Part shown: in pieces, positions 11,727 to 28,156 of the stretch | Layout: every line of letters starts with the position of its first letter | Position numbering within the stretch: the stretch's first letter is position 1 | IMG/VR virus record: IMGVR_UViG_3300021959_000011 | Coordinates: 64,001-128,000 of that record | Direction: 5' to 3' (one strand) | Source: a virus | DNA: 64,000 nt | The notes under the pieces: model-generated | What the model saw: the letters and a program-made list of their open reading frames with translations, nothing else | Database searches by the model: none | What the model was told of the DNA's origin: nothing | Translations under genes and position numbers: made by a program

Positions 11727-13769
11727 CTATTTTGTTGTTGCTATAAAAACACCATTCCAATCTTCTGGTAAATCCTGAGTTTCCATGTATTCGCACCTTT
11801 CTTTCCACATCCTGTAATAACCTTCCATACGTCCATCAAAATGGTCAACCAAACCTTCACACAAATACCCAGCGCGTACAAATTCCTTATTACGATAGTG
11901 CTTTAACATTTCATCATGTATTCTACCACTAACTCTATAGTGATTTTTAATATTATCTAATGCGGTGTAAATACTTATACCTATAGTCTTTCCTTTGACT
12001 GCAAGATCATCTAACTTCAGATAAAAGAAATCATCTTTTGTTCTATTATAGGTTTCTTCTCCAATTAACAAAACCATACCATATTCTTTACACTTTGATT
12101 CTATTCTCGCAGCAGTTGATACAGAATCCCCCAATACGTCATACGAGTGTCTTGCAGTACTTCCCATTTCACCCAAATAACCAAGACCAGTATTAATACC
12201 AGCCCCCATACCAACTGGAGGCCTACCTTCACTAGTAATTTTTTCATTGAACTTTTCCACAGCATTTAACATATCAAATGCAGTTTGTACTGCAGTCTTG
12301 GCATGGTTTGGATCATCTATAGGGGCATTATGAACATGCATACTTGCATCACCAATATATTTGATAACCATACCTTCACTATCAAGAATTGGTTGTGTGA
12401 TTGCATCCATATAACCATTCATAATCTTAGTCAAACCTTTTACGTCATCACCAAAAGATTCTCCTAATGGTGTGAAACCACGCAAATCGGAAAAACAAAT
12501 ACTAATCTCTTTTTTCATACCATCTTTGATAAGTGAAGGATTTTCTTGTAACATGCGTACAACTGTGGGAGATGCATAACCGGCAAATTGTTTTTTGATT
12601 TCTTGTTTCTCTAAAAATTCACTGATAAACTTTACTGAGTATCTAAAAGTACCTAATAAAAGTAACAAGAATGATATCGTAAGTCCATCAATCAAAAATC
12701 CATATTGATTAAAAATGTATACTGTACTGTACATTATACCCACTAATGTAAACGTAAAGAAACATAATCCAATATAAGTCCAGTTTGATAACACAATTAA
12801 TAACAGTCCAATAACTATCAATGCAGTAATTTCGCCCCAGGCCTTTGCATCTGGGTGTCTTGAAATATTTGAGTCGTTGAATACTGTGCCCAACATGACT
12901 GCCTGCATTTCGTGCGGCCATATACCACCTTTTGCAGTAGAGATAGGTTGTGCAATCCCACCAGCACTAACACCAACAAAAACAACACCACCATTAAAAT
13001 TATCTGGTAAGTTTTCACTACTCACAGAAGTATATCCCTGAGACCAATCAATCCAGATTTCACCAAGGGCGTTTGTCTGAATAGAACCAAATTGTGGAAT
13101 TCTCAGTTTATCTACGCCGAGGGGGGATAGTTTAATTTGAAATGAAGGATCTCCAGCAATAACTCTTAAAGTCTCCATTGTTACATTTGGATATAAAACT
13201 CCACCACTTTCAAACACAAGGGGAGCTCTTCTTGTTACACCATCCAATTCTGGATAAGTGTCAGTTATCCCTGTACCAAGTGCAGTACCTTCAAGTAATT
13301 CAATATTAGTTGTGATGCCAGATATACTTGGAATGAGATGCATATACTGACTATTAATAATTCCAGCGCCAGGGTTATATGGTTCATTTTTGTTCTCCTC
13401 TGTACCTATCATTGTTAAAATGACAGGATACTCATTTAAAATATAAGATAATTCTTCATCTTCTCCAAATCTATCTTTTTCGCTCATAAGTACATTAAAT
13501 ACAACTAGTCCAGCACCTCTATCGTAAATATCTTGGATAATCTCCCCATAAATACTTCGAGGAAATGGCCATTGTCCATATTCATCAATAGTTGTTTCAT
13601 CTATATTGACTGTAAAAATATTATTTTGTTGTATTGGTTGACTTGTAATAAGAGTGTCAAAATATCTTAACCTAACACTCTCAACAAAATTTGGATTGAC
13701 ATGATAGATCCATGTCAGACATGCGAGTAGTAAAATACTCCATACAGGTGAAAGTAAAACTTTTTTCAT
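11727..13769 (-). CDS. CHASE2-domain class III adenylate/guanylate cyclase
   Basis: N-terminal TM; CHASE2 motifs (VNIDETTIDEYGQWPFPRS, DGVTRR, HEMQA); 3 TM; cyclase motifs FSDLRGFT, KYIGDA, GAGINTG, YDVLGDSVSTAARIES, VKGK; C-terminal TPR-like W.GVF..TTK. Confidence 0.95.
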   Translation of the reverse strand: MKKVLLSPVWSILLLACLTWIYHVNPNFVESVRLRYFDTLITSQPIQQNNIFTVNIDETTIDEYGQWPFPRSIYGEIIQDIYDRGAGLVVFNVLMSEKDRFGEDEELSYILNEYPVILTMIGTEENKNEPYNPGAGIINSQYMHLIPSISGITTNIELLEGTALGTGITDTYPELDGVTRRAPLVFESGGVLYPNVTMETLRVIAGDPSFQIKLSPLGVDKLRIPQFGSIQTNALGEIWIDWSQGYTSVSSENLPDNFNGGVVFVGVSAGGIAQPISTAKGGIWPHEMQAVMLGTVFNDSNISRHPDAKAWGEITALIVIGLLLIVLSNWTYIGLCFFTFTLVGIMYSTVYIFNQYGFLIDGLTISFLLLLLGTFRYSVKFISEFLEKQEIKKQFAGYASPTVVRMLQENPSLIKDGMKKEISICFSDLRGFTPLGESFGDDVKGLTKIMNGYMDAITQPILDSEGMVIKYIGDASMHVHNAPIDDPNHAKTAVQTAFDMLNAVEKFNEKITSEGRPPVGMGAGINTGLGYLGEMGSTARHSYDVLGDSVSTAARIESKCKEYGMVLLIGEETYNRTKDDFFYLKLDDLAVKGKTIGISIYTALDNIKNHYRVSGRIHDEMLKHYRNKEFVRAGYLCEGLVDHFDGRMEGYYRMWKERCEYMETQDLPEDWNGVFIATTK

Positions 13770-14041
13770 GACAACTTTTTCTTTATATACAATACTACCG
13801 CATAAACTGTTAAAAGATACACTGTTGCGATACTAACATCTACAATATGTTCTCTCATATTATATATAAATTCTATTCCTGCCTGAACATCTCCCTGACC
13901 ACCTACACCAACATTTTCTGTAATATTGATTGTTTTGCCTTCGAACCCGTCAAAGGCGCCATCCTCAATAATAATTTCACAATCGTCACATTCGCCGTCT
14001 TGCCAAGGTTCTACTGTTTGATTAATTTCAATGTCATTCAT
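13766..14041 (-). CDS. small acidic protein with C-terminal TM helix
   Basis: Acidic N-terminus with CDDC, TM VSIATVYLLTVYAVVLYI; ATGA overlap with the cyclase gene. Confidence 0.65.
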   Translation of the reverse strand: MNDIEINQTVEPWQDGECDDCEIIIEDGAFDGFEGKTINITENVGVGGQGDVQAGIEFIYNMREHIVDVSIATVYLLTVYAVVLYIKKKLS

Positions 14042-14048
14042 TTTTTCC

Positions 14049-14747
14049 TCAATTCTGTGTCACATTTACTGTACACCCAGATGAATTAGTGCAATAATTT
14101 GTAATAGAGATTGATTTTGATGCTGGGTCTTGGTAACTTGATCCAAGTTGTTGTATATTTGCTGTCACGGGCCCGCCAGCATTTGTTACATTGATAGTTG
14201 CTGAGTTATTAAGTGAACGTTGGTAAAGAGTAACATCGTTGTCATCACCTGTCACATAGATACCACCATAGGCTACACCATAACTGTCGCTGTTATGTTT
14301 TACTGTATTACCATCACCAGTTATATAAGTCTCACTTTCTTTGTGTCCACCCCAACTACCACCACTACTATTATTGATTAACCGACTCATTACAGTATTT
14401 TCATCACCTGTTATTTCTACAATAGTTTCTCTGGTGTTGCCATTGTTTTGTCCGGCCGCATGACTAGTTCGAACTATGTTTTCATTTCCAATCATTGTCA
14501 CATCTACAACACTGTTATCACTTTTATAACCTCTACTCCACCCTACTGCATTACCATTTAAGTCAATACAATTACTGTCAGCATTAGGTGTGGCACAATA
14601 ACGAAATTCGTTATCCCGTCCATCTTGAACCACAGTAAGTTCAAGATTGTCGCCAACTTGATTGATATAAATTTCGTTACTATTGGACTTGGATGATATT
14701 AATAGTGTTATTACCAACACCAAGCCGATAGTTATATATTGCTTCAT
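14049..14747 (-). CDS. secreted curlin-like beta-solenoid protein 2 (CsgA/CsgB-like)
   Basis: Signal peptide; NEIYINQVGDNLELTVVQDGRDN and repeated x-I-T-G-D-x-N-x-V units. Confidence 0.75.
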   Translation of the reverse strand: MKQYITIGLVLVITLLISSKSNSNEIYINQVGDNLELTVVQDGRDNEFRYCATPNADSNCIDLNGNAVGWSRGYKSDNSVVDVTMIGNENIVRTSHAAGQNNGNTRETIVEITGDENTVMSRLINNSSGGSWGGHKESETYITGDGNTVKHNSDSYGVAYGGIYVTGDDNDVTLYQRSLNNSATINVTNAGGPVTANIQQLGSSYQDPASKSISITNYCTNSSGCTVNVTQN

Positions 14748-15795
14748 CTTGTTGCTCCACGTTTATCGTATACCCATATTCTTGGTTTAATTCTAAATCA
14801 ATATAATGAGTAATGGATGCATCTTCTCTACTAAACTTCCAATTTGGTTCTTCAACTTCTAATGTTATTCTTGTGGCTGGATCGTATCCAAATACTTTAT
14901 CTGCAAAAAATTCTTCGTTCTGTTTTTGTAACTCATCTTTAAATAATTCCGCCAATGCTAGGTTCATCGTGTCTAACATATCATGCAACAATTCTTGTAA
15001 ATATAAGTCAGTATTATTTAGTTCAGTTACCCAGATGTTTTTGATATCGTCTAAAAGTACATCTTCATCCAACCCATCATATTCTAAAAAGTCAATATCT
15101 AAAAAATCATAAATTTTTCGCGCCTTGCGTACAATTTCTTCTTCCTCTTCTATATATGGAGATTTCTTTCTAAGAATTAAGAGATTTGTAATATCGGATT
15201 CTTCTAAAGGTAATATTAATGGTTTTAACGGTGGGGTCCAAGATTGTTTTACAATAGTTGTTTGATAAGATTGATTCATTATAACAATACCATTATCATT
15301 TTCTACAGTAATTTCACCAGTAACACAATATCCACTTATATCACAACTAGGCAGTAATGTAACCATTGTGCCACCAATTTCATCTACAACCATTACAAAA
15401 TCCGTGCCACGCACATTAATCTTTGCACTAGGAGTTCTTATGTTTACACGCTGTCTACTATTCTTTGCAATTTGACCACTTGCGTATCTAACTGTACCCA
15501 GAGTTGCCCTTAAACCCAATCTACCAGTACGAGTATTTGGATCATAAACAAAATCATCGATCAACAATCTTGCATGTTCTGTAATATCTACTCTAGTTTC
15601 ATCAACAAAATCGATTCTCATTCTACCCTTGGCAGTAACAGCAGTATCCATAGGCATAACACCTACGCCCCTGCCACCATCAATAACTTGATTATCTCTT
15701 TCTAACACTCCACTACCACTAAACTTACCTATTTCACCGGCACTACCAAACGCATAAGTTGGTATCAACAATAATAGACTTATTATCCTAAACAC
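14680..15795 (-). CDS. FecR-domain exported protein
   Basis: Signal peptide; D...T..G...I.F.D.T.V.I.E...L.ID.F.YDP, G.VRY.SG, IRTPSA.I.VRGTDF. Confidence 0.88.
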   Translation of the reverse strand: MFRIISLLLLIPTYAFGSAGEIGKFSGSGVLERDNQVIDGGRGVGVMPMDTAVTAKGRMRIDFVDETRVDITEHARLLIDDFVYDPNTRTGRLGLRATLGTVRYASGQIAKNSRQRVNIRTPSAKINVRGTDFVMVVDEIGGTMVTLLPSCDISGYCVTGEITVENDNGIVIMNQSYQTTIVKQSWTPPLKPLILPLEESDITNLLILRKKSPYIEEEEEIVRKARKIYDFLDIDFLEYDGLDEDVLLDDIKNIWVTELNNTDLYLQELLHDMLDTMNLALAELFKDELQKQNEEFFADKVFGYDPATRITLEVEEPNWKFSREDASITHYIDLELNQEYGYTINVEQQDEAIYNYRLGVGNNTINIIQVQ

Positions 15796-15796
15796 A

Positions 15797-16525
15797 TTAG
15801 TCTCTCTGGATAATATCTACTTCGGCATTATCACCCACAAATGTTGCATCAACTTTTGTATCATAAATTCCACTTTGGTTTATACTAAACCAACCGCCAC
15901 CACCAGTAATACTTAATGTAACACTATGTCCGGCACTATCACCGGCACCAGATTGGTCAATCTTTACATAATTGCCAGGAGCTTCAGTAGCTAATCCAGA
16001 ATGACCGTCAGAAACTGTACCACTTGCAAGTGAATTTTCATTGTTTATTGTCACAGTAATATCTGCGGCCTTACCATCCTGATCAACATCAATGACGTTT
16101 CCATCACCAGTAATGGTAAATACGGCAACTAGGTCTTCCGCATCGCCGGTTTCACCAATTCTGAACAGAAATTTGTTATCATCTCCAGTTGTCGCAATAT
16201 TCAATGTGACATCTTCACAATTTGTACCAGAAGTATCATCACACGTCAGATCCACAGTATTGTCATCACCAGTAAATACCCACGTACCAGTGTAACTATT
16301 ACCTTTTATCAGTGCATCAATTTCATTAAAATTACCTGTTTGAGTAATTGAGAATGTCATATCATCACCATCTAAAAGAACATCTGTTGTAGAGTCACCA
16401 AACTCATTGTCCTGACCATCTTGCGTAATAGCTAAATCTAAATTATCACCAGATTGTGTAATATAGATATCATTAGCAAATACTGGAAACGAAAAGAATA
16501 TCAATGGAATTATATATTTCCACAT
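15797..16525 (-). CDS. secreted curlin-like beta-solenoid protein 1 (CsgA/CsgB-like)
   Basis: Signal peptide; NDIYITQSGDNLDLAITQDGQDN, ITQTGNFN, TGDDN, IDQSG, INQSG repeats. Confidence 0.8.
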   Translation of the reverse strand: MWKYIIPLIFFSFPVFANDIYITQSGDNLDLAITQDGQDNEFGDSTTDVLLDGDDMTFSITQTGNFNEIDALIKGNSYTGTWVFTGDDNTVDLTCDDTSGTNCEDVTLNIATTGDDNKFLFRIGETGDAEDLVAVFTITGDGNVIDVDQDGKAADITVTINNENSLASGTVSDGHSGLATEAPGNYVKIDQSGAGDSAGHSVTLSITGGGGWFSINQSGIYDTKVDATFVGDNAEVDIIQRD

Positions 16526-16546
16526 ATCTTATTTCTCCTTAATAAA

Positions 16547-17347
16547 TTATTTGAATTTCCATAATTTTTTATCAACACCTTCATAAACCAATTCTATAAT
16601 TCCCTGCTCTATCGCAGCTCTTACTGCATAATTTACAGGTTCGTTTACTGAAAAACCAGATTCTGTTTCTACGAGTTTTGTACCTAAATCCAAAAACTTA
16701 AAAACATCTGCGCCGGTTCTATAACTTGCAATAGATTTTTCTGTTGCAATACTCATTAAGACCTTACCAGTGTTAACGCTAACTAATCTCATTACGACAG
16801 TAACTGTATCTATTCTATATTCTGTTTGTGCGCCGATGCCAAGATATCTTCCACCAACACCACCTACAGCCGTATTACTGTCATAACCAACTACACCACC
16901 TTCTAAAATCAAACCCGCAAAAATCATAGGTTTTAATTTTATGGGTCCGTTTGGTAAATCCTTTTCGTATACCTCTCTTGTATTTCTAATAAGTTGTCTT
17001 TCTTTAATAAGGTTGTCCATACCAACTCTTTCAACAACCTCAAACCATTCACCCTGTCCAACATCCTGTAGGGCCTTTATAACCCAAACCTCCGAACCTT
17101 GTGTTACGGCCGAACTTAGATTTGCAATACCATCTGATGGTTTTCTCTGTCCAGTTTTATCCAAAAACTGATAGACTGCAATAGTAATTTTATCACCATC
17201 TATTGGTGGTACTGCTGCCAATCGTTCTTTGATAGGACTCTCCTGTGATACTGGAGAATCGTCCAAACTATTCAGAACATCAAGAGATTGCATTACTGCA
17301 CATCCGCCTAAAAAATTCATAAAAAATATTATAAAAAATATTCTCAT
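16547..17347 (-). CDS. csgG: curli secretion channel lipoprotein CsgG
   Basis: Lipobox LGGC; IAVYQFLDKTGQRKP...SSAVTQG, WFEVVERVG.DNL.KERQLIR, EGGVVGYD.N...GG.GGRYLGIG...YR.D.VTV..RLVSV.TG, NEPV..AVR.AIE. Confidence 0.95.
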   Translation of the reverse strand: MRIFFIIFFMNFLGGCAVMQSLDVLNSLDDSPVSQESPIKERLAAVPPIDGDKITIAVYQFLDKTGQRKPSDGIANLSSAVTQGSEVWVIKALQDVGQGEWFEVVERVGMDNLIKERQLIRNTREVYEKDLPNGPIKLKPMIFAGLILEGGVVGYDSNTAVGGVGGRYLGIGAQTEYRIDTVTVVMRLVSVNTGKVLMSIATEKSIASYRTGADVFKFLDLGTKLVETESGFSVNEPVNYAVRAAIEQGIIELVYEGVDKKLWKFK

Positions 17348-17809
17348 TTAAAATCCAAATTCTCCACTGCCTGGCACAGTAATTTCTGTAACAGTACCAT
17401 CATCACCAACAATAGTTAGTGTGATTTCACCAGTAGTTTCATCTCTAATCCAACTAATAGTTGAACCTTCAATCGATGCTGTACCTGTATTTGAACAAGT
17501 ATCAGTACAATCTGCAAACATCGAATCTACCATCTGTTTAGAAAGTTGTGCGTAAATTCTAGATTCAATGTTACGAATAAATTTATTTAGAGTTGTATTA
17601 TTCAATTCTCTTTCTATTCGTGCGGCCTCAGATTCTGCATCTTTTCGAAGTTCTTCTTTTCTATTATGTTGCAACTGTTCAACACTCAGTACATGAGTAG
17701 AATATCCATTACCATAATGAAATGCAGGGTTCTTAAATCCCCATGTCATTTCAGAACCATATACTGGAAATGTTAATAATAATATCACTAATATAAAAAA
17801 GATTTTCAT
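17348..17809 (-). CDS. csgF: curli assembly protein CsgF
   Basis: Signal peptide; SEMTWGFKNPAF..GNG (CsgF N-terminus), F..N.ESRIYAQLS, G..TEITVP; directly upstream of csgG. Confidence 0.88.
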   Translation of the reverse strand: MKIFFILVILLLTFPVYGSEMTWGFKNPAFHYGNGYSTHVLSVEQLQHNRKEELRKDAESEAARIERELNNTTLNKFIRNIESRIYAQLSKQMVDSMFADCTDTCSNTGTASIEGSTISWIRDETTGEITLTIVGDDGTVTEITVPGSGEFGF

Positions 17810-24993: not shown

Positions 24994-25464
24994 TTAGACA
25001 ATCAGTTCGAAATGTGGGCCATCAATAAATGGTCTACGTCCTTGTGAACGGCGTAAATCAACATATGCATTCATTGCATCTTCTGCAGTACCACTATAAG
25101 AACGAATATCACCTTCTGACCATGCAGCACCCCATTTGACTGCAACACCATGTTCTTCGGCGGCCTGTTTGAATGCATCACAGATATCATCATATACATT
25201 GATTTCCCAGATAACTTCTGATCCATCATAGGCGACAACATCTACTGCGTGAGAATACCCACTATCTTGAATTAAATGTTTAGATTTCATAGTCTGAGAA
25301 CGTCCAGATGCAACCAATCTTTTCTGTTCTTCTAGTTCACGTACTCCATAGGTCACACCAAAATCAACTTTGGTCAATTCAATAGCACGTTCAACGACTG
25401 CGACCATATCTGGATGGACGCCTTCTAATTTACCTTTTGATCTATTTGAAAGTTTAAAAGCCAT
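24994..25464 (-). CDS. M15-family L-Ala-D-Glu peptidase endolysin
   Basis: LEGVHPD, R..EEQ..LV..G.SQTM.SKHL, HAVD, WG..W, DGPHFEL. Confidence 0.92.
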   Translation of the reverse strand: MAFKLSNRSKGKLEGVHPDMVAVVERAIELTKVDFGVTYGVRELEEQKRLVASGRSQTMKSKHLIQDSGYSHAVDVVAYDGSEVIWEINVYDDICDAFKQAAEEHGVAVKWGAAWSEGDIRSYSGTAEDAMNAYVDLRRSQGRRPFIDGPHFELIV

Positions 25465-25524: not shown

Positions 25525-25707
25525 TTACCCACTTACATAAGTGTCTTTGGGTCTAAACCACACTTTCTGGTGGTGTATTTTTGCCAACAACTCAGTAACT
25601 TTTCGTTTATTATTGTTGTCTAATTCATTCTGGTAATGACGTAGAGCCTTTTCAATATACTCTACGTCACTTACTGTTAGTTTGAATTTTTCATTTGGTT
25701 TATTCAT
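25525..25707 (-). CDS. hypothetical protein
   Basis: 60-aa ORF; TATAAATA at 25713-25720 upstream. Confidence 0.6.
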   Translation of the reverse strand: MNKPNEKFKLTVSDVEYIEKALRHYQNELDNNNKRKVTELLAKIHHQKVWFRPKDTYVSG

Positions 25708-25715
25708 ACTATTAT

Positions 25716-25904
25716 TTATATTGTTGGATCATATTGTTCGCCATTGTAGCCAGGGTAACTCTGACCATCATGCACACCAGAGTTACATCCTACAACAACA
25801 ACAAGTAAAAATAATATAGACCACAACGTTACTCTTTTACTCCAAACCATAAATGCATCAAAAGTTTTTTCTGCCTCTTGTTGTGCCTGTTCTCTAGGAG
25901 TCAT
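25716..25904 (-). CDS. aa3-type cytochrome c oxidase subunit IV-like protein
   Basis: QQEAEKTFDAFMVWSKRVTLWSILFLLVVVVGCNS matches the Q-x-x-TF-x-x-F + TM + NS pattern of Rhodobacter/Paracoccus subunit IV; start moved to ATG 25904. Confidence 0.65.
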   Translation of the reverse strand: MTPREQAQQEAEKTFDAFMVWSKRVTLWSILFLLVVVVGCNSGVHDGQSYPGYNGEQYDPTI

Positions 25905-26073
25905 AAGATATTCCGAAACATGGTATCCAACTCTTATTACAATACTGGGCGTAATCTTCCAACCCAACCATTGCCATAAGTGCCAAGATTGGTACACCAA
26001 CAATCATGAATGCGATAACTGCAAAGGCCTTACCCAAATCTTTAGTTGTACAATAATTAGTTTGTTCACTCAT
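25894..26073 (-). CDS. small single-TM protein, 59 aa (not in ORF track)
   Basis: MSEQTNYCTTKDLGKAFAVIAFMIVGVPILALMAMVGLEDYAQYCNKSWIPCFGISYDS; overlaps both neighbours. Confidence 0.7.
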   Translation of the reverse strand: MSEQTNYCTTKDLGKAFAVIAFMIVGVPILALMAMVGLEDYAQYCNKSWIPCFGISYDS

Positions 26074-26473
26074 TATCAGTTACCCCCATAGTTTGTAAGT
26101 ATGCAATAATATCGGCACGCTTCTGTTCTTTCTTTTCTTTAAAGTTCATTTTAGTACCCTTAACTAATTTCTTCGAATTAGTCAACCAAGCATCCATCAA
26201 TTCTGGTGTCCACTCTGGATTTTCTTCTGCCCACGCAAGAAACTTTTTACTATATCTAAAGTCTGCCTGTGCAGTACCTCTTTGCATGATATTCCAGAGA
26301 TTAGGTCCAGTTTTATTCTTTCCGCCTTCGTCAATACTGTGACATGAGGCACATTTCTTAAAACCCTTTTTACCTTTGTCTGGATTACCTTCCGCCGATG
26401 CGGTTGCGACATATAACATACTTACTAAAAAACCTACAATAAAAGTCCAAATTAAAGCTTTATTCATTTTCAT
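26066..26473 (-). CDS. class I cytochrome c (cytochrome c2-like)
   Basis: Signal/TM; G...KGKK.FKKCASCH, KTGPNL, F.YS, W....D.WL.N.KK.VKGTKM.F, R.DIIAYL. Confidence 0.95.
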   Translation of the reverse strand: MKMNKALIWTFIVGFLVSMLYVATASAEGNPDKGKKGFKKCASCHSIDEGGKNKTGPNLWNIMQRGTAQADFRYSKKFLAWAEENPEWTPELMDAWLTNSKKLVKGTKMNFKEKKEQKRADIIAYLQTMGVTDNE

Positions 26474-26479
26474 TCCTTC

Positions 26480-26665
26480 TCAATTATTTTGGATTTTCCC
26501 TATTTCCAACATACATTTCTTGGCTTCCTCGTGCATACCCATTCTTGCGAGCTCCGCTGCCGCTCTCGCATAACCAACTGTCTGCGTATAACGATCTAGT
26601 GAAGACCACAATCCAGATAACGGTGAAAAGACATAGTTTGCTACTAAAGTTGTCATTAGACCCAC
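26480..26665 (-). CDS. small helical protein next to DUF1127
   Basis: GYARAAAELARMG..EEAK. Confidence 0.65.
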   Translation of the reverse strand: MGLMTTLVANYVFSPLSGLWSSLDRYTQTVGYARAAAELARMGMHEEAKKCMLEIGKIQNN

Positions 26666-26898
26666 CCCTTCAAGTTACCATTTGAATATGTGTACACTCT
26701 TTCTTTTGCTTTATTTTCTTCGACAATATCTCTATAATGAGATTGTGCGACATATTTAATTTCTCCGCGACTAAGACCAATATCATTTAATTCATAATCG
26801 GTTAGTCTAGAGAGTTCTCTGATAGTTTGTTTTCTTGCTACTGATGCTTCATGACGAGATTGCCATGAACCATATAAGTTGATTAATACCCCTAACAT
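26656..26898 (-). CDS. DUF1127-family small protein
   Basis: RKQTIRELSRLTDYELNDIGLSRGEI; start moved to ATG 26898 (SD AAGGA). Confidence 0.9.
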   Translation of the reverse strand: MLGVLINLYGSWQSRHEASVARKQTIRELSRLTDYELNDIGLSRGEIKYVAQSHYRDIVEENKAKERVYTYSNGNLKGWV

Positions 26899-27031
26899 TT
26901 GCGTTTCCTTTCGTGTGATAAATGTGTGTATCATTACGTGAATATATAGTGCAAAAGTATATTTAAGTCAAGGGTTCTGACGGGTTTTTCATATAGAATT
27001 TTTGCATTCCCGCCATGCAAAAAATGCATTA

Positions 27032-28156
27032 TTATTTTGTTTCAAATACTCCATTATATTGATTATTAACTAACACAAAAGTTGTACATTTCGAAAGTTG
27101 TTTAAGACTCCCTGCACCCACGTAAGTACAAGTACTTCTAATGCCCCCTAGAATATCTTGGATTGTCTTTGCCACCTCTCCACGATATGGTACTAAGACT
27201 TCTCTACCTTCAGACGAACGATATTCTTTAAGTCCACCAAAGTGTTTATCATTTGCAGCCTTACTGCTCATACCATAGAACTGCACAAACTGTTTTTCTT
27301 CTATTGCCGAAACGTGATCTCCATTATCATGTATATCAACTTCATCTGATTTGTAATATTTCTTTATTACTTCACCACCACCTTCATCGTGTCCGGCAAG
27401 CATACCACCCAACATTACAAAGTCAGCACCACCAGCGAATGCCTTCGCTACATCACCAGAGCATGTACACCCACCATCAGCAATGATATGCCCACCAAGA
27501 CCATGGGCAGCATCAGCGCATTCAATAACTGCCGAGAGTTGGGGATAACCGACTCCAGTTTTGATACGAGTAGTACAAACACTGCCAGGCCCAATACCCA
27601 CTTTAACAATATCGGCTCCATTTAAAATTAACTCCTGTGTTTGATCTGCAGTAACAACATTCCCTGCAATGATTACAATATTAGGATACAACATTCTAAA
27701 CTGTTTTATAAAGTCTACAAACCGTTCTGTATATCCATTTGCAACATCAATACAAACATATTTTAGATTATATCCAACTTGTTCGTAGACCATGCGAAAC
27801 TTATCATGATCCGCATCAGAAATACCAATAGACATTGCAACATATTCTCTGCGCTCAAGATATTCTTCTGTATCGAAATAATCCACTAGTTGATTTACTG
27901 TGTAGGTTTTGACTAAACAGGTCATAATCTGACCTGTTGCAAGCATATCAGCCATTTCAAATGTACCGACACCATCCATATTTGCAGCAATGATAGGTAC
28001 ACCAGAAAAATCTGAATCACATATATCATCGAAATTATAGTTTACAAATTGGTATTCTCTATTCAGAGATACGCACTTGCGACTTGACAGTGTAGAACGT
28101 TTCGGACGAATTAATACGTCACTATAATCTAATTTGGTTTCCTGTTCGATTCTCAT
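27032..28156 (-). CDS. guaC: GMP reductase
   Basis: [74 protein letters not shown]. Confidence 0.97.

Follow-up and report, generated by a model that had tools for sequence, protein, structure and literature searches.

A viral cytochrome c gene as one exchangeable cargo in a variable island of small membrane genes

Background

Cyanophages carry the genes of plastocyanin (petE) and ferredoxin (petF) as auxiliary photosynthetic electron carriers, which are presumed to sustain host energy conversion. Host-energy auxiliary genes are well documented for cyanophage photosynthesis, whereas respiration-side equivalents in phages of marine heterotrophs have barely been described. In this work we focused on a string of five small genes, coding for a DUF1127 protein, a helical protein (h61), a cytochrome c and two one-helix proteins (tm59 and orf62), in a window of 64,000 nucleotides (nt). 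The window is the whole stretch of DNA that was analysed and corresponds to bases 64001-128000 of an IMG/VR virus record (IMGVR_UViG_3300021959_000011; 140,926 bp, completeness approximately 70% by CheckV).

The context of the cyanophage electron-carrier genes has been described (PMC5082946), and a study on phage nitrogen-cycle genes reports that cytochrome carriers were not seen in its phages (PMC8115048). Like the products of petE and petF, the cytochrome c studied here is a small soluble electron carrier encoded as an auxiliary gene by a marine T4-like phage. It differs from them in that it would be respiratory and not photosynthetic, would need the Ccm system of the host as a haem protein, and would serve in a heterotrophic host. 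Its closest described counterparts are the soluble domain of Paracoccus denitrificans c552 (1ql4), Pseudorhizobium c552 (8ed4) and mitochondrial cytochrome c (1hrc), which have the same fold and 39-47% identity, and of which it keeps the CxxCH, G-P-N-L and G-T-K-M (axial Met) motifs, at a mature length of about 105 amino acids (aa). Unlike Paracoccus c552, which has a membrane anchor, it has a predicted cleavable signal peptide and, unlike all three, it is phage-encoded and falls in a virus-only clade. We found no published description of this gene in the literature on phage and viral cytochrome c and on pelagimyophages.

Counterparts have also been described for two of the other genes. DUF1127 proteins are known as regulators, which act by RNA binding with small RNA maturation or by binding of the sensor kinase PhoR (PMC8034643, PMC12501420). 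CcaF1 of Rhodobacter sphaeroides and the Agrobacterium DUF1127 trio have the same PF06568 domain and the same small size as the phage protein, which differs from them by an extra conserved C-terminal N-L-K-G-W-V motif and by its fixed partner h61. Subunit IV of the aa3 oxidase (PF07835) shares with orf62 an acidic E-x-T-[FWY]-x-x-F motif and one transmembrane helix in the N-in/C-out orientation. In contrast to subunit IV, orf62 has an invariant V-x-[GAS]-C-N-x-G-V box with a tail that is likewise conserved; its family yielded no cellular members, and there are no oxidase genes nearby.

An earlier note on this DNA had read the five genes as a respiratory mini-operon, by which the phage would supply its host with an electron carrier and accessory oxidase subunits. 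The comparison of related viral loci reported here shows that the cytochrome c is one exchangeable cargo among several, lying in a variable slot between two conserved gene pairs.

Methods

Related loci were collected by fetching 24 viral loci via the cytochrome c and the best 80 of 342 stretches matching orf62, which gave 104 loci. A further 80 loci (L180-L259), which carry the F-type ATP synthase c subunit, were tabulated for gene order. Many loci are cut by contig ends, so that all co-occurrence counts given below are lower bounds. Cellular homologues were searched in 401 genomes sampled across Alphaproteobacteria, the tallies of which include two unpublished genomes (G244 and G045) in the totals only. 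A reference set of 24 genuine subunit IV genes was extracted from alphaproteobacterial genomes.

Results and discussion

The five open reading frames (ORFs) are all on the minus strand and are tightly coupled:

26656-26898, minus strand: DUF1127 small protein, 80 aa; start codon ATG at 26898, with the Shine-Dalgarno sequence AAGGAA 6 nt before it
26480-26656, minus strand: h61, helical protein, 58 aa; its ATG at 26656 shares one base with the DUF1127 stop codon (TAATG)
26066-26467, minus strand: cytochrome c precursor (PF00034), 133 aa (135 aa if the start is at 26473)
25894-26073, minus strand: tm59, one-helix membrane protein, 59 aa; 8-nt overlap with the stop of the cytochrome c gene
25716-25904, minus strand: orf62, one-helix protein, 62 aa; 11-nt overlap with tm59

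Each of them is conserved across many viral contigs, and they are thus real genes and not chance ORFs. The five abutting or overlapping genes of the earlier note, including DUF1127 and the 59-aa transmembrane protein, are therefore borne out as such.

The pairs DUF1127-h61 and tm59-orf62 form a conserved frame, found in hundreds of viral contigs, with a variable cargo slot between them. In relatives, h61 and orf62 are separated by anything from 14 to 2689 nt. DUF1127-h61 precedes the cytochrome c in 20 of the 24 cytochrome c loci. Around orf62, tm59 was found in 53 of 80 loci, usually just upstream of it, and DUF1127 with h61 in 47. Among the 104 loci the slot contained a protein with two transmembrane segments (58 loci), a DoxX protein (48), a soluble helical protein (36), a cytochrome c (29), an F-type ATP synthase c subunit (12) or a Bmp/PnrA binding protein (12). 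The cytochrome c and the c subunit both lie directly after DUF1127-h61 and never occur together, either in these loci or in the 80 tabulated for gene order. As the slot accepts several exchangeable cargoes, of which the cytochrome c is one, linkage to it is no ground for assigning the frame genes to respiration.

These counts bear directly on the proposal that the five genes are one respiratory module, providing both the electron carrier and accessory oxidase subunits. It draws on the tight coupling of the genes behind one promoter candidate, on a genuine cytochrome c next to an orf62 that resembles subunit IV, and on the presence of other bioenergetic cargo in the same island of relatives. 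However, the conserved linkage between orf62 and cytochrome c on which it depended was not found: cytochrome c is present in 5 of the 80 orf62 loci, and orf62, with tm59, lies near the cytochrome c in 5 of the 24 cytochrome c loci. In most relatives the other four genes are found as a set that lacks cytochrome c, published DUF1127 proteins are regulators, and h61 and tm59 match nothing. The mini-operon of the earlier note, in which the cytochrome c turns out to be variable cargo, is therefore abandoned here as a unit, and we consider a single respiratory module very unlikely.

The cytochrome c itself is well defined. It matches PF00034 with 48.3 bits (cut-off 21.3; E 2.7e-12) and contains CASCH and GTKM. 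Its best sequence match in the PDB (E 5e-22) aligns over the full length with CxxCH and GTKM in register, and end-to-end alignments were obtained with mitochondrial cytochrome c of Leishmania, Crithidia and vertebrates and with bacterial c552 (E 5e-22 to 1e-16). The haem ligands C39, C42, H43 and M107 are invariant among 36 aligned sequences. An AlphaFold2 (AF2) model built with 36 sequences reached a predicted local distance difference test score of 85 overall and above 90 over the mature domain. In Foldseek it matched cytochrome c552 and mitochondrial cytochrome c (8ed4, 1ql4, 5c0z) with template modelling (TM) scores of 0.87-0.91 and root mean square deviations of 1.3-1.5 Å, and it has the three-helix cytochrome c fold. 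The N-terminus reads as a typical signal peptide, with a K-containing hydrophobic segment ending in A-S-A before E-G. Sequence and model thus describe a complete mitochondrial/c552-type monohaem class I protein with a cleavable signal peptide, predicted to be exported. The intact class I cytochrome c reported earlier was therefore correctly recognised, and it is of the type that feeds aa3 oxidases. In L021 (4986-5375, plus strand), L022 and L023 the signal peptide ends in a lipobox-like F-T-A-G-C, and some phage cytochromes c may be lipid-anchored instead of soluble.

In the protein collection, approximately 110 clusters with at least 55% identity to the cytochrome c were found, all metagenomic and on contigs of at most 300 kb, followed by a gap to longer proteins of at most 51% identity; these longer proteins were taken as cellular, and the viral labels of the metagenomic proteins are inferred. 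Among the 401 alphaproteobacterial genomes the best identity was 52%. In a quick tree the 36 viral-type sequences and two fragments formed one clade (SH-aLRT 97), whose sister is a pair of cellular sequences (L165 and L172). Together, the virus-only clade, its number of clusters and the distance to alphaproteobacterial proteins point to an established viral lineage rather than a recent capture. In GenBank phages no tblastn match was obtained for the cytochrome c, orf62 or the c subunit, in a search whose low-complexity filter may hide matches rich in transmembrane segments. PHROGs contain no family for the cytochrome c, orf62, tm59, h61, DoxX or the c subunit.

The alternative cargoes, and an endonuclease gene beside the cytochrome c, were located in relatives as follows, coordinates being those of the respective locus:

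L053:1919-2140, plus strand: F-type ATP synthase c subunit homologue, 74 aa (ATP-synt_C, PF00137, E 1.9e-10; NCBIfam PRK07558, E 1.5e-17)
L007:4585-5001 and L011:5335-5745, plus strand: DoxX-family membrane protein (PF07681, E 1.8e-7), lying before or after the cytochrome c, or after orf62
L065:1952-3034, plus strand: Bmp/PnrA-type substrate-binding protein (PF02608, E 1.7e-50), slot cargo
L009:5561-6091, plus strand: SegE-type GIY-YIG homing endonuclease (E 5.5e-37), just downstream of the cytochrome c, past a 50-aa ORF

The c subunit was found on at least 80 viral contigs, downstream of DUF1127(-h61) wherever the upstream flank is present (all but 2 of 80), and all 80 copies retain its carboxylate motif F-A-E-A-L. 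The SegE-type endonuclease may drive the exchange of cargo in the slot.

The DoxX genes also raise the question of whether the cytochrome c serves another periplasmic redox reaction, such as DoxX-type quinone-linked sulfur oxidation, electron donation to a peroxidase or donation to a photosynthetic reaction centre. DoxX adjoins the cytochrome c in 14 of the 24 cytochrome c loci. By structure, the top match is a c552 that is the electron acceptor of arsenite oxidase. By sequence, the closest entry stems from work on a peroxidase, and the complex entry of that work (4ged) was at rank 25 of the fold search. The fold thus serves many partners. However, no DoxX gene is present in the window, and DoxX is common without cytochrome c, occurring in 34 of the 80 orf62 loci as against 5 with cytochrome c. 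In its length and its richness in lysine the protein is like oxidase donors, e.g. Paracoccus c552 (TM score 0.91). A role of this kind is thus unlikely.

The earlier note had likened the 62-aa ORF to subunit IV of the oxidase. The protein consists of a cytoplasmic motif, one long helix, V-V-G-C (with Cys40) and a conserved 22-aa periplasmic tail (C-N-S-G-V ... Y-N-G-E-Q-Y-x-P), and the E-K-T-F-x-x-F/transmembrane/N-S pattern is present. It also has the juxtamembrane E-x-x-[TS]-[WYF]-x-x-F motif followed by a single transmembrane helix, as in subunit IV. Of 31 relatives, 22 match PF07835 and no other Pfam family (E at most 0.01; best 2.9e-5). In the protein collection the orf62 family makes up 142 clusters, for none of which a Pfam domain is stored, and some relatives lie on long contigs of 300-400 kb. 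The nearest ESM Atlas clusters are 100% viral and have PF07835 on 11-18% of their members.

Alignment of the orf62 family with the subunit IV family by hhalign gave a probability of 88% (P 2.9e-6) over 28 columns spanning E-x-T-F-x-x-F and the helix, with the residues E, T, F/Y, F and K of the two families paired. Controls consisting of reversed alignments, twenty column shuffles, tm59 and h61 gave at most 12%, with a gap of approximately 1000-fold in P value. When a subunit IV hidden Markov model (HMM) was run against 11,641 six-frame ORFs from the window and the 104 loci, the top 60 were all of the orf62 family; in 59 of them the conserved tail motif is present, and the remaining one, L054, is probably a divergent member. 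The matches, controls and HMM ranking together indicate a specific likeness of orf62 to subunit IV. AF2 returned a single 40-residue helix with a disordered tail, and a fold search with this model was uninformative, all rows being tied at Z of at most 5 among long helices of every kind.

The second half of orf62 is different. The V-[VIFA]-[GAS]-C-N-x-G-V box and a tail ending in Y-N-G-E-Q-Y-x-P, 21-32 aa from the Cys, are present in 120 of 120 orf62 relatives, the box occurring as VVGC, VIGC, VVAC, VFAC, VFGC or VASC. A K/R followed by a 15-residue hydrophobic run precedes the Cys in 116 of the 120, and orf62 fits the lipobox pattern ([LVI]-[ASTVI]-[GAS]-C, with a K/R n-region and a hydrophobic run of 7-22 residues). 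Counted from the conserved start, the Cys is residue 40, the usual range being approximately 15-35; only if counting begins at an internal Met, which is not conserved, does it fall within this range. The gene is under purifying selection in every segment, with ratios of nonsynonymous to synonymous polymorphism (pN/pS) of 0.11-0.53; the lowest values are those of the Cys box (0.11) and the tail (0.20), followed by the conserved N-terminal part of 23 residues (0.33) and the helix (0.34).

Taken together, sequence and model predict that orf62 is a phage-specific N-in/C-out one-helix membrane protein. Its first approximately 39 residues are probably derived from, or mimic, subunit IV, and its second half has a job other than that of subunit IV. 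The protein may dock on the host oxidase, or be a lipoprotein, or both. Of the earlier proposal on this ORF, the resemblance to subunit IV thus stands as a specific profile likeness, whereas its score below the Pfam cut-off and its lipobox-like Cys and tail do not fit a plain member of that family.

These features make it necessary to consider orf62, together with tm59, as a small phage envelope lipoprotein without any respiratory link, which might for example exclude superinfecting phages, mask a receptor or control lysis. Its likeness to subunit IV would then be convergence of a juxtamembrane amphipathic motif plus a helix, and the cytochrome c an unrelated cargo. This would account for the lipobox-like residues and for the strongest constraint being on the Cys box and the tail. 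It also agrees with a family that is all viral, with no cellular counterpart in the 401 genomes, and that is a frame gene in 342 viral stretches whatever the cargo; in the 401 genomes the orf62 profile gave three marginal matches, and the one inspected was out of frame inside a 703-aa gene. The endolysin gene lies two genes downstream of orf62 in the window. However, constraint on the conserved N-terminal 23 residues is unusual for a mere signal peptide, the Cys lies outside the usual positions, and the likeness to subunit IV exceeds all controls. A two-component spanin formed by tm59 and orf62 was rejected, as the periplasmic parts are too short (approximately 20 residues in tm59 and 22-31 in orf62) and there is no PHROG match, and so was a lysis cassette, endolysin adjacency being missing from all related loci. 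We regard the envelope lipoprotein as a possible but rather doubtful explanation.

In a bolder reading of the same features, the island would be a phage kit that tunes the energy-transducing membrane of the host by means of exchangeable cargo and a fixed stand-in for subunit IV. In its boldest form, signal peptidase II would cut before Cys40; the released 39-residue helix, which has the size of subunit IV, may then enter the aa3 oxidase, and a separate lipopeptide may have its own periplasmic target. We consider this quite unlikely.

The remaining frame genes gave fewer clues to function. The DUF1127 protein matches PF06568 with 45.2 bits (cut-off 23.3; E 7.5e-12). The h61 protein, translationally coupled to it, has a conserved S-R-A-A-A-E-L-A-R motif and 33 distinct homologues, each encoded immediately after DUF1127; the pair DUF1127-h61 had no blastn match in GenBank phages. 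An alignment of 26 distinct tm59 sequences showed a conserved N-terminal Y-C-T-T-K-G-L-G and two conserved Cys in the short C-terminal tail. Neither h61 nor tm59 matched any Pfam, PHROG or NCBIfam entry, and no respiratory signature of DUF1127, h61 or tm59 appeared in the profile searches or in the published DUF1127 roles.

Signals flanking the gene string were the following:

26943-26971, minus strand: sigma-70-like promoter candidate TTGACT-17 nt-TATATA, upstream of DUF1127, read by eye
25713-25720, minus strand: T4-type late promoter motif TATAAATA at the 3' end of orf62, heading p60 and ending the early string
25525-25707: p60, the gene after orf62

The consensus promoter scanner did not list the TTGACT/TATATA candidate, the second hexamer of which is without the final T. 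The motif TATAAATA has 17 copies in the window, against 8.4 expected; nearly all of them lie on the coding strand just before a gene, which is consistent with T4-type late promoters. No copy is present at the promoter candidate before DUF1127, and along the gene string the first one occurs only after orf62. With a sigma-70-like promoter upstream and the late motif only past orf62, the string looks like one early or middle transcript.

As for the phage itself, its window has a GC content of approximately 36% and contains a baseplate gene matching cyano-T4 phages. It also encodes gp32, the nearest cultured homologue of which is just 56% identical, so that the phage belongs to an uncultured marine T4-like lineage. 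Three other regions of the window are of interest:

11727-17809, minus strand: CsgG, CsgF, two curlin-repeat proteins, a FecR-domain protein and a CHASE2-adenylate/guanylate cyclase in a single run
24994-25464, minus strand: M15-type endolysin, with DNA approximately 75% identical to the endolysins of Roseobacter phages CRP-1 and CRP-345
27032-28156, minus strand: GMP reductase (PF00478, E 6e-67), directly upstream of the island

The csgGF pair has been described as a rare signature of SAR11 and OM43 myophages (PMC7029224, PMC9004378). Related myophages are reported to have csgGF without curlin genes, so that the curlin repeats are noteworthy here. Among cultured phages, DUF1127 homologues were found only in Sinorhizobium and Roseobacter phages, i.e. 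phages of alphaproteobacteria. This distribution and the endolysin resembling those of Roseobacter phages hint at an alphaproteobacterial host. The Rhodobacterales setting adopted earlier was an assumption, the phage having a GC content of approximately 36% and the csgGF signature of SAR11/OM43 myophages. No related locus has an endolysin at the position it occupies in the window, which suggests a recent exchange between unrelated phages, perhaps sharing a host. GMP reductase and haem synthesis genes have been described as marks of a deep-water ecotype in pelagimyophages (PMC7029224). Coproporphyrinogen oxidase was not found in the phage record (141 kb, approximately 70% complete), nor were any other haem synthesis genes, DoxX, the F-ATPase c subunit or COX1.

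The explanation we prefer is that of a mosaic island, probably transcribed early, the small genes of which code for inner-membrane and periplasmic proteins, in an abundant T4-like lineage, with the cytochrome c as cargo and an orf62 that in part resembles subunit IV; we hold it to be probable, if only just. The slot between DUF1127-h61 and tm59-orf62 is empty in some phages and filled with up to 2.7 kb of exchangeable cargo in others, and orf62 is a frame gene and not a partner of the cytochrome. The cytochrome c would be exported by Sec, receive haem from the host Ccm system and shuttle electrons through the periplasm between the bc1 complex and the terminal oxidase, its acceptor. In this way both the proton-motive force and the supply of ATP might be maintained during the shutdown of host gene expression, as with cyanophage plastocyanin and ferredoxin. 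Because an F-ATPase c subunit or DoxX occupies the same slot in relatives, the island as a whole appears to target the energy-transducing membrane; three cargo types act there, which suggests this theme by association only.

Several points weigh against this explanation. The orf62 of the window falls short of the 22-bit cut-off of PF07835 (COX4_pro_2), with 20.4 bits (E 6e-4) and, in the genome search, 19.7 bits. Its match to subunit IV is short (28 columns) and includes the transmembrane helix, and the orf62 profile recovers no subunit IV gene in the 401 alphaproteobacterial genomes. Genuine subunit IV, in the 24 reference proteins, ends 0-5 residues past the helix and has no Cys box, the exceptions in length being L143 (86 aa) and L149 (6 aa past the helix); orf62 lies outside the usual size of approximately 37-50 aa ending near the helix. 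An oxidase core subunit (COX1) is not encoded in the 141 kb of phage sequence. The promoter candidate was read by eye only. In the early regions of T4-like phages it is usual for unrelated small genes to be transcribed together, and the energy theme is one of association.

Conclusion

What is new in this locus is a virus-specific clade of mitochondrial-type cytochrome c in a fixed slot of an abundant T4-like lineage, with an ATP synthase c subunit as alternative cargo of the slot and a phage-only relative of subunit IV beside it. If the energy-related role is true, infected cells would run a partly phage-built respiratory chain, and estimates of carbon and oxygen turnover for infected bacterioplankton would be affected. 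Otherwise, the island remains a clear case of conserved small genes framing a hot spot for cargo.

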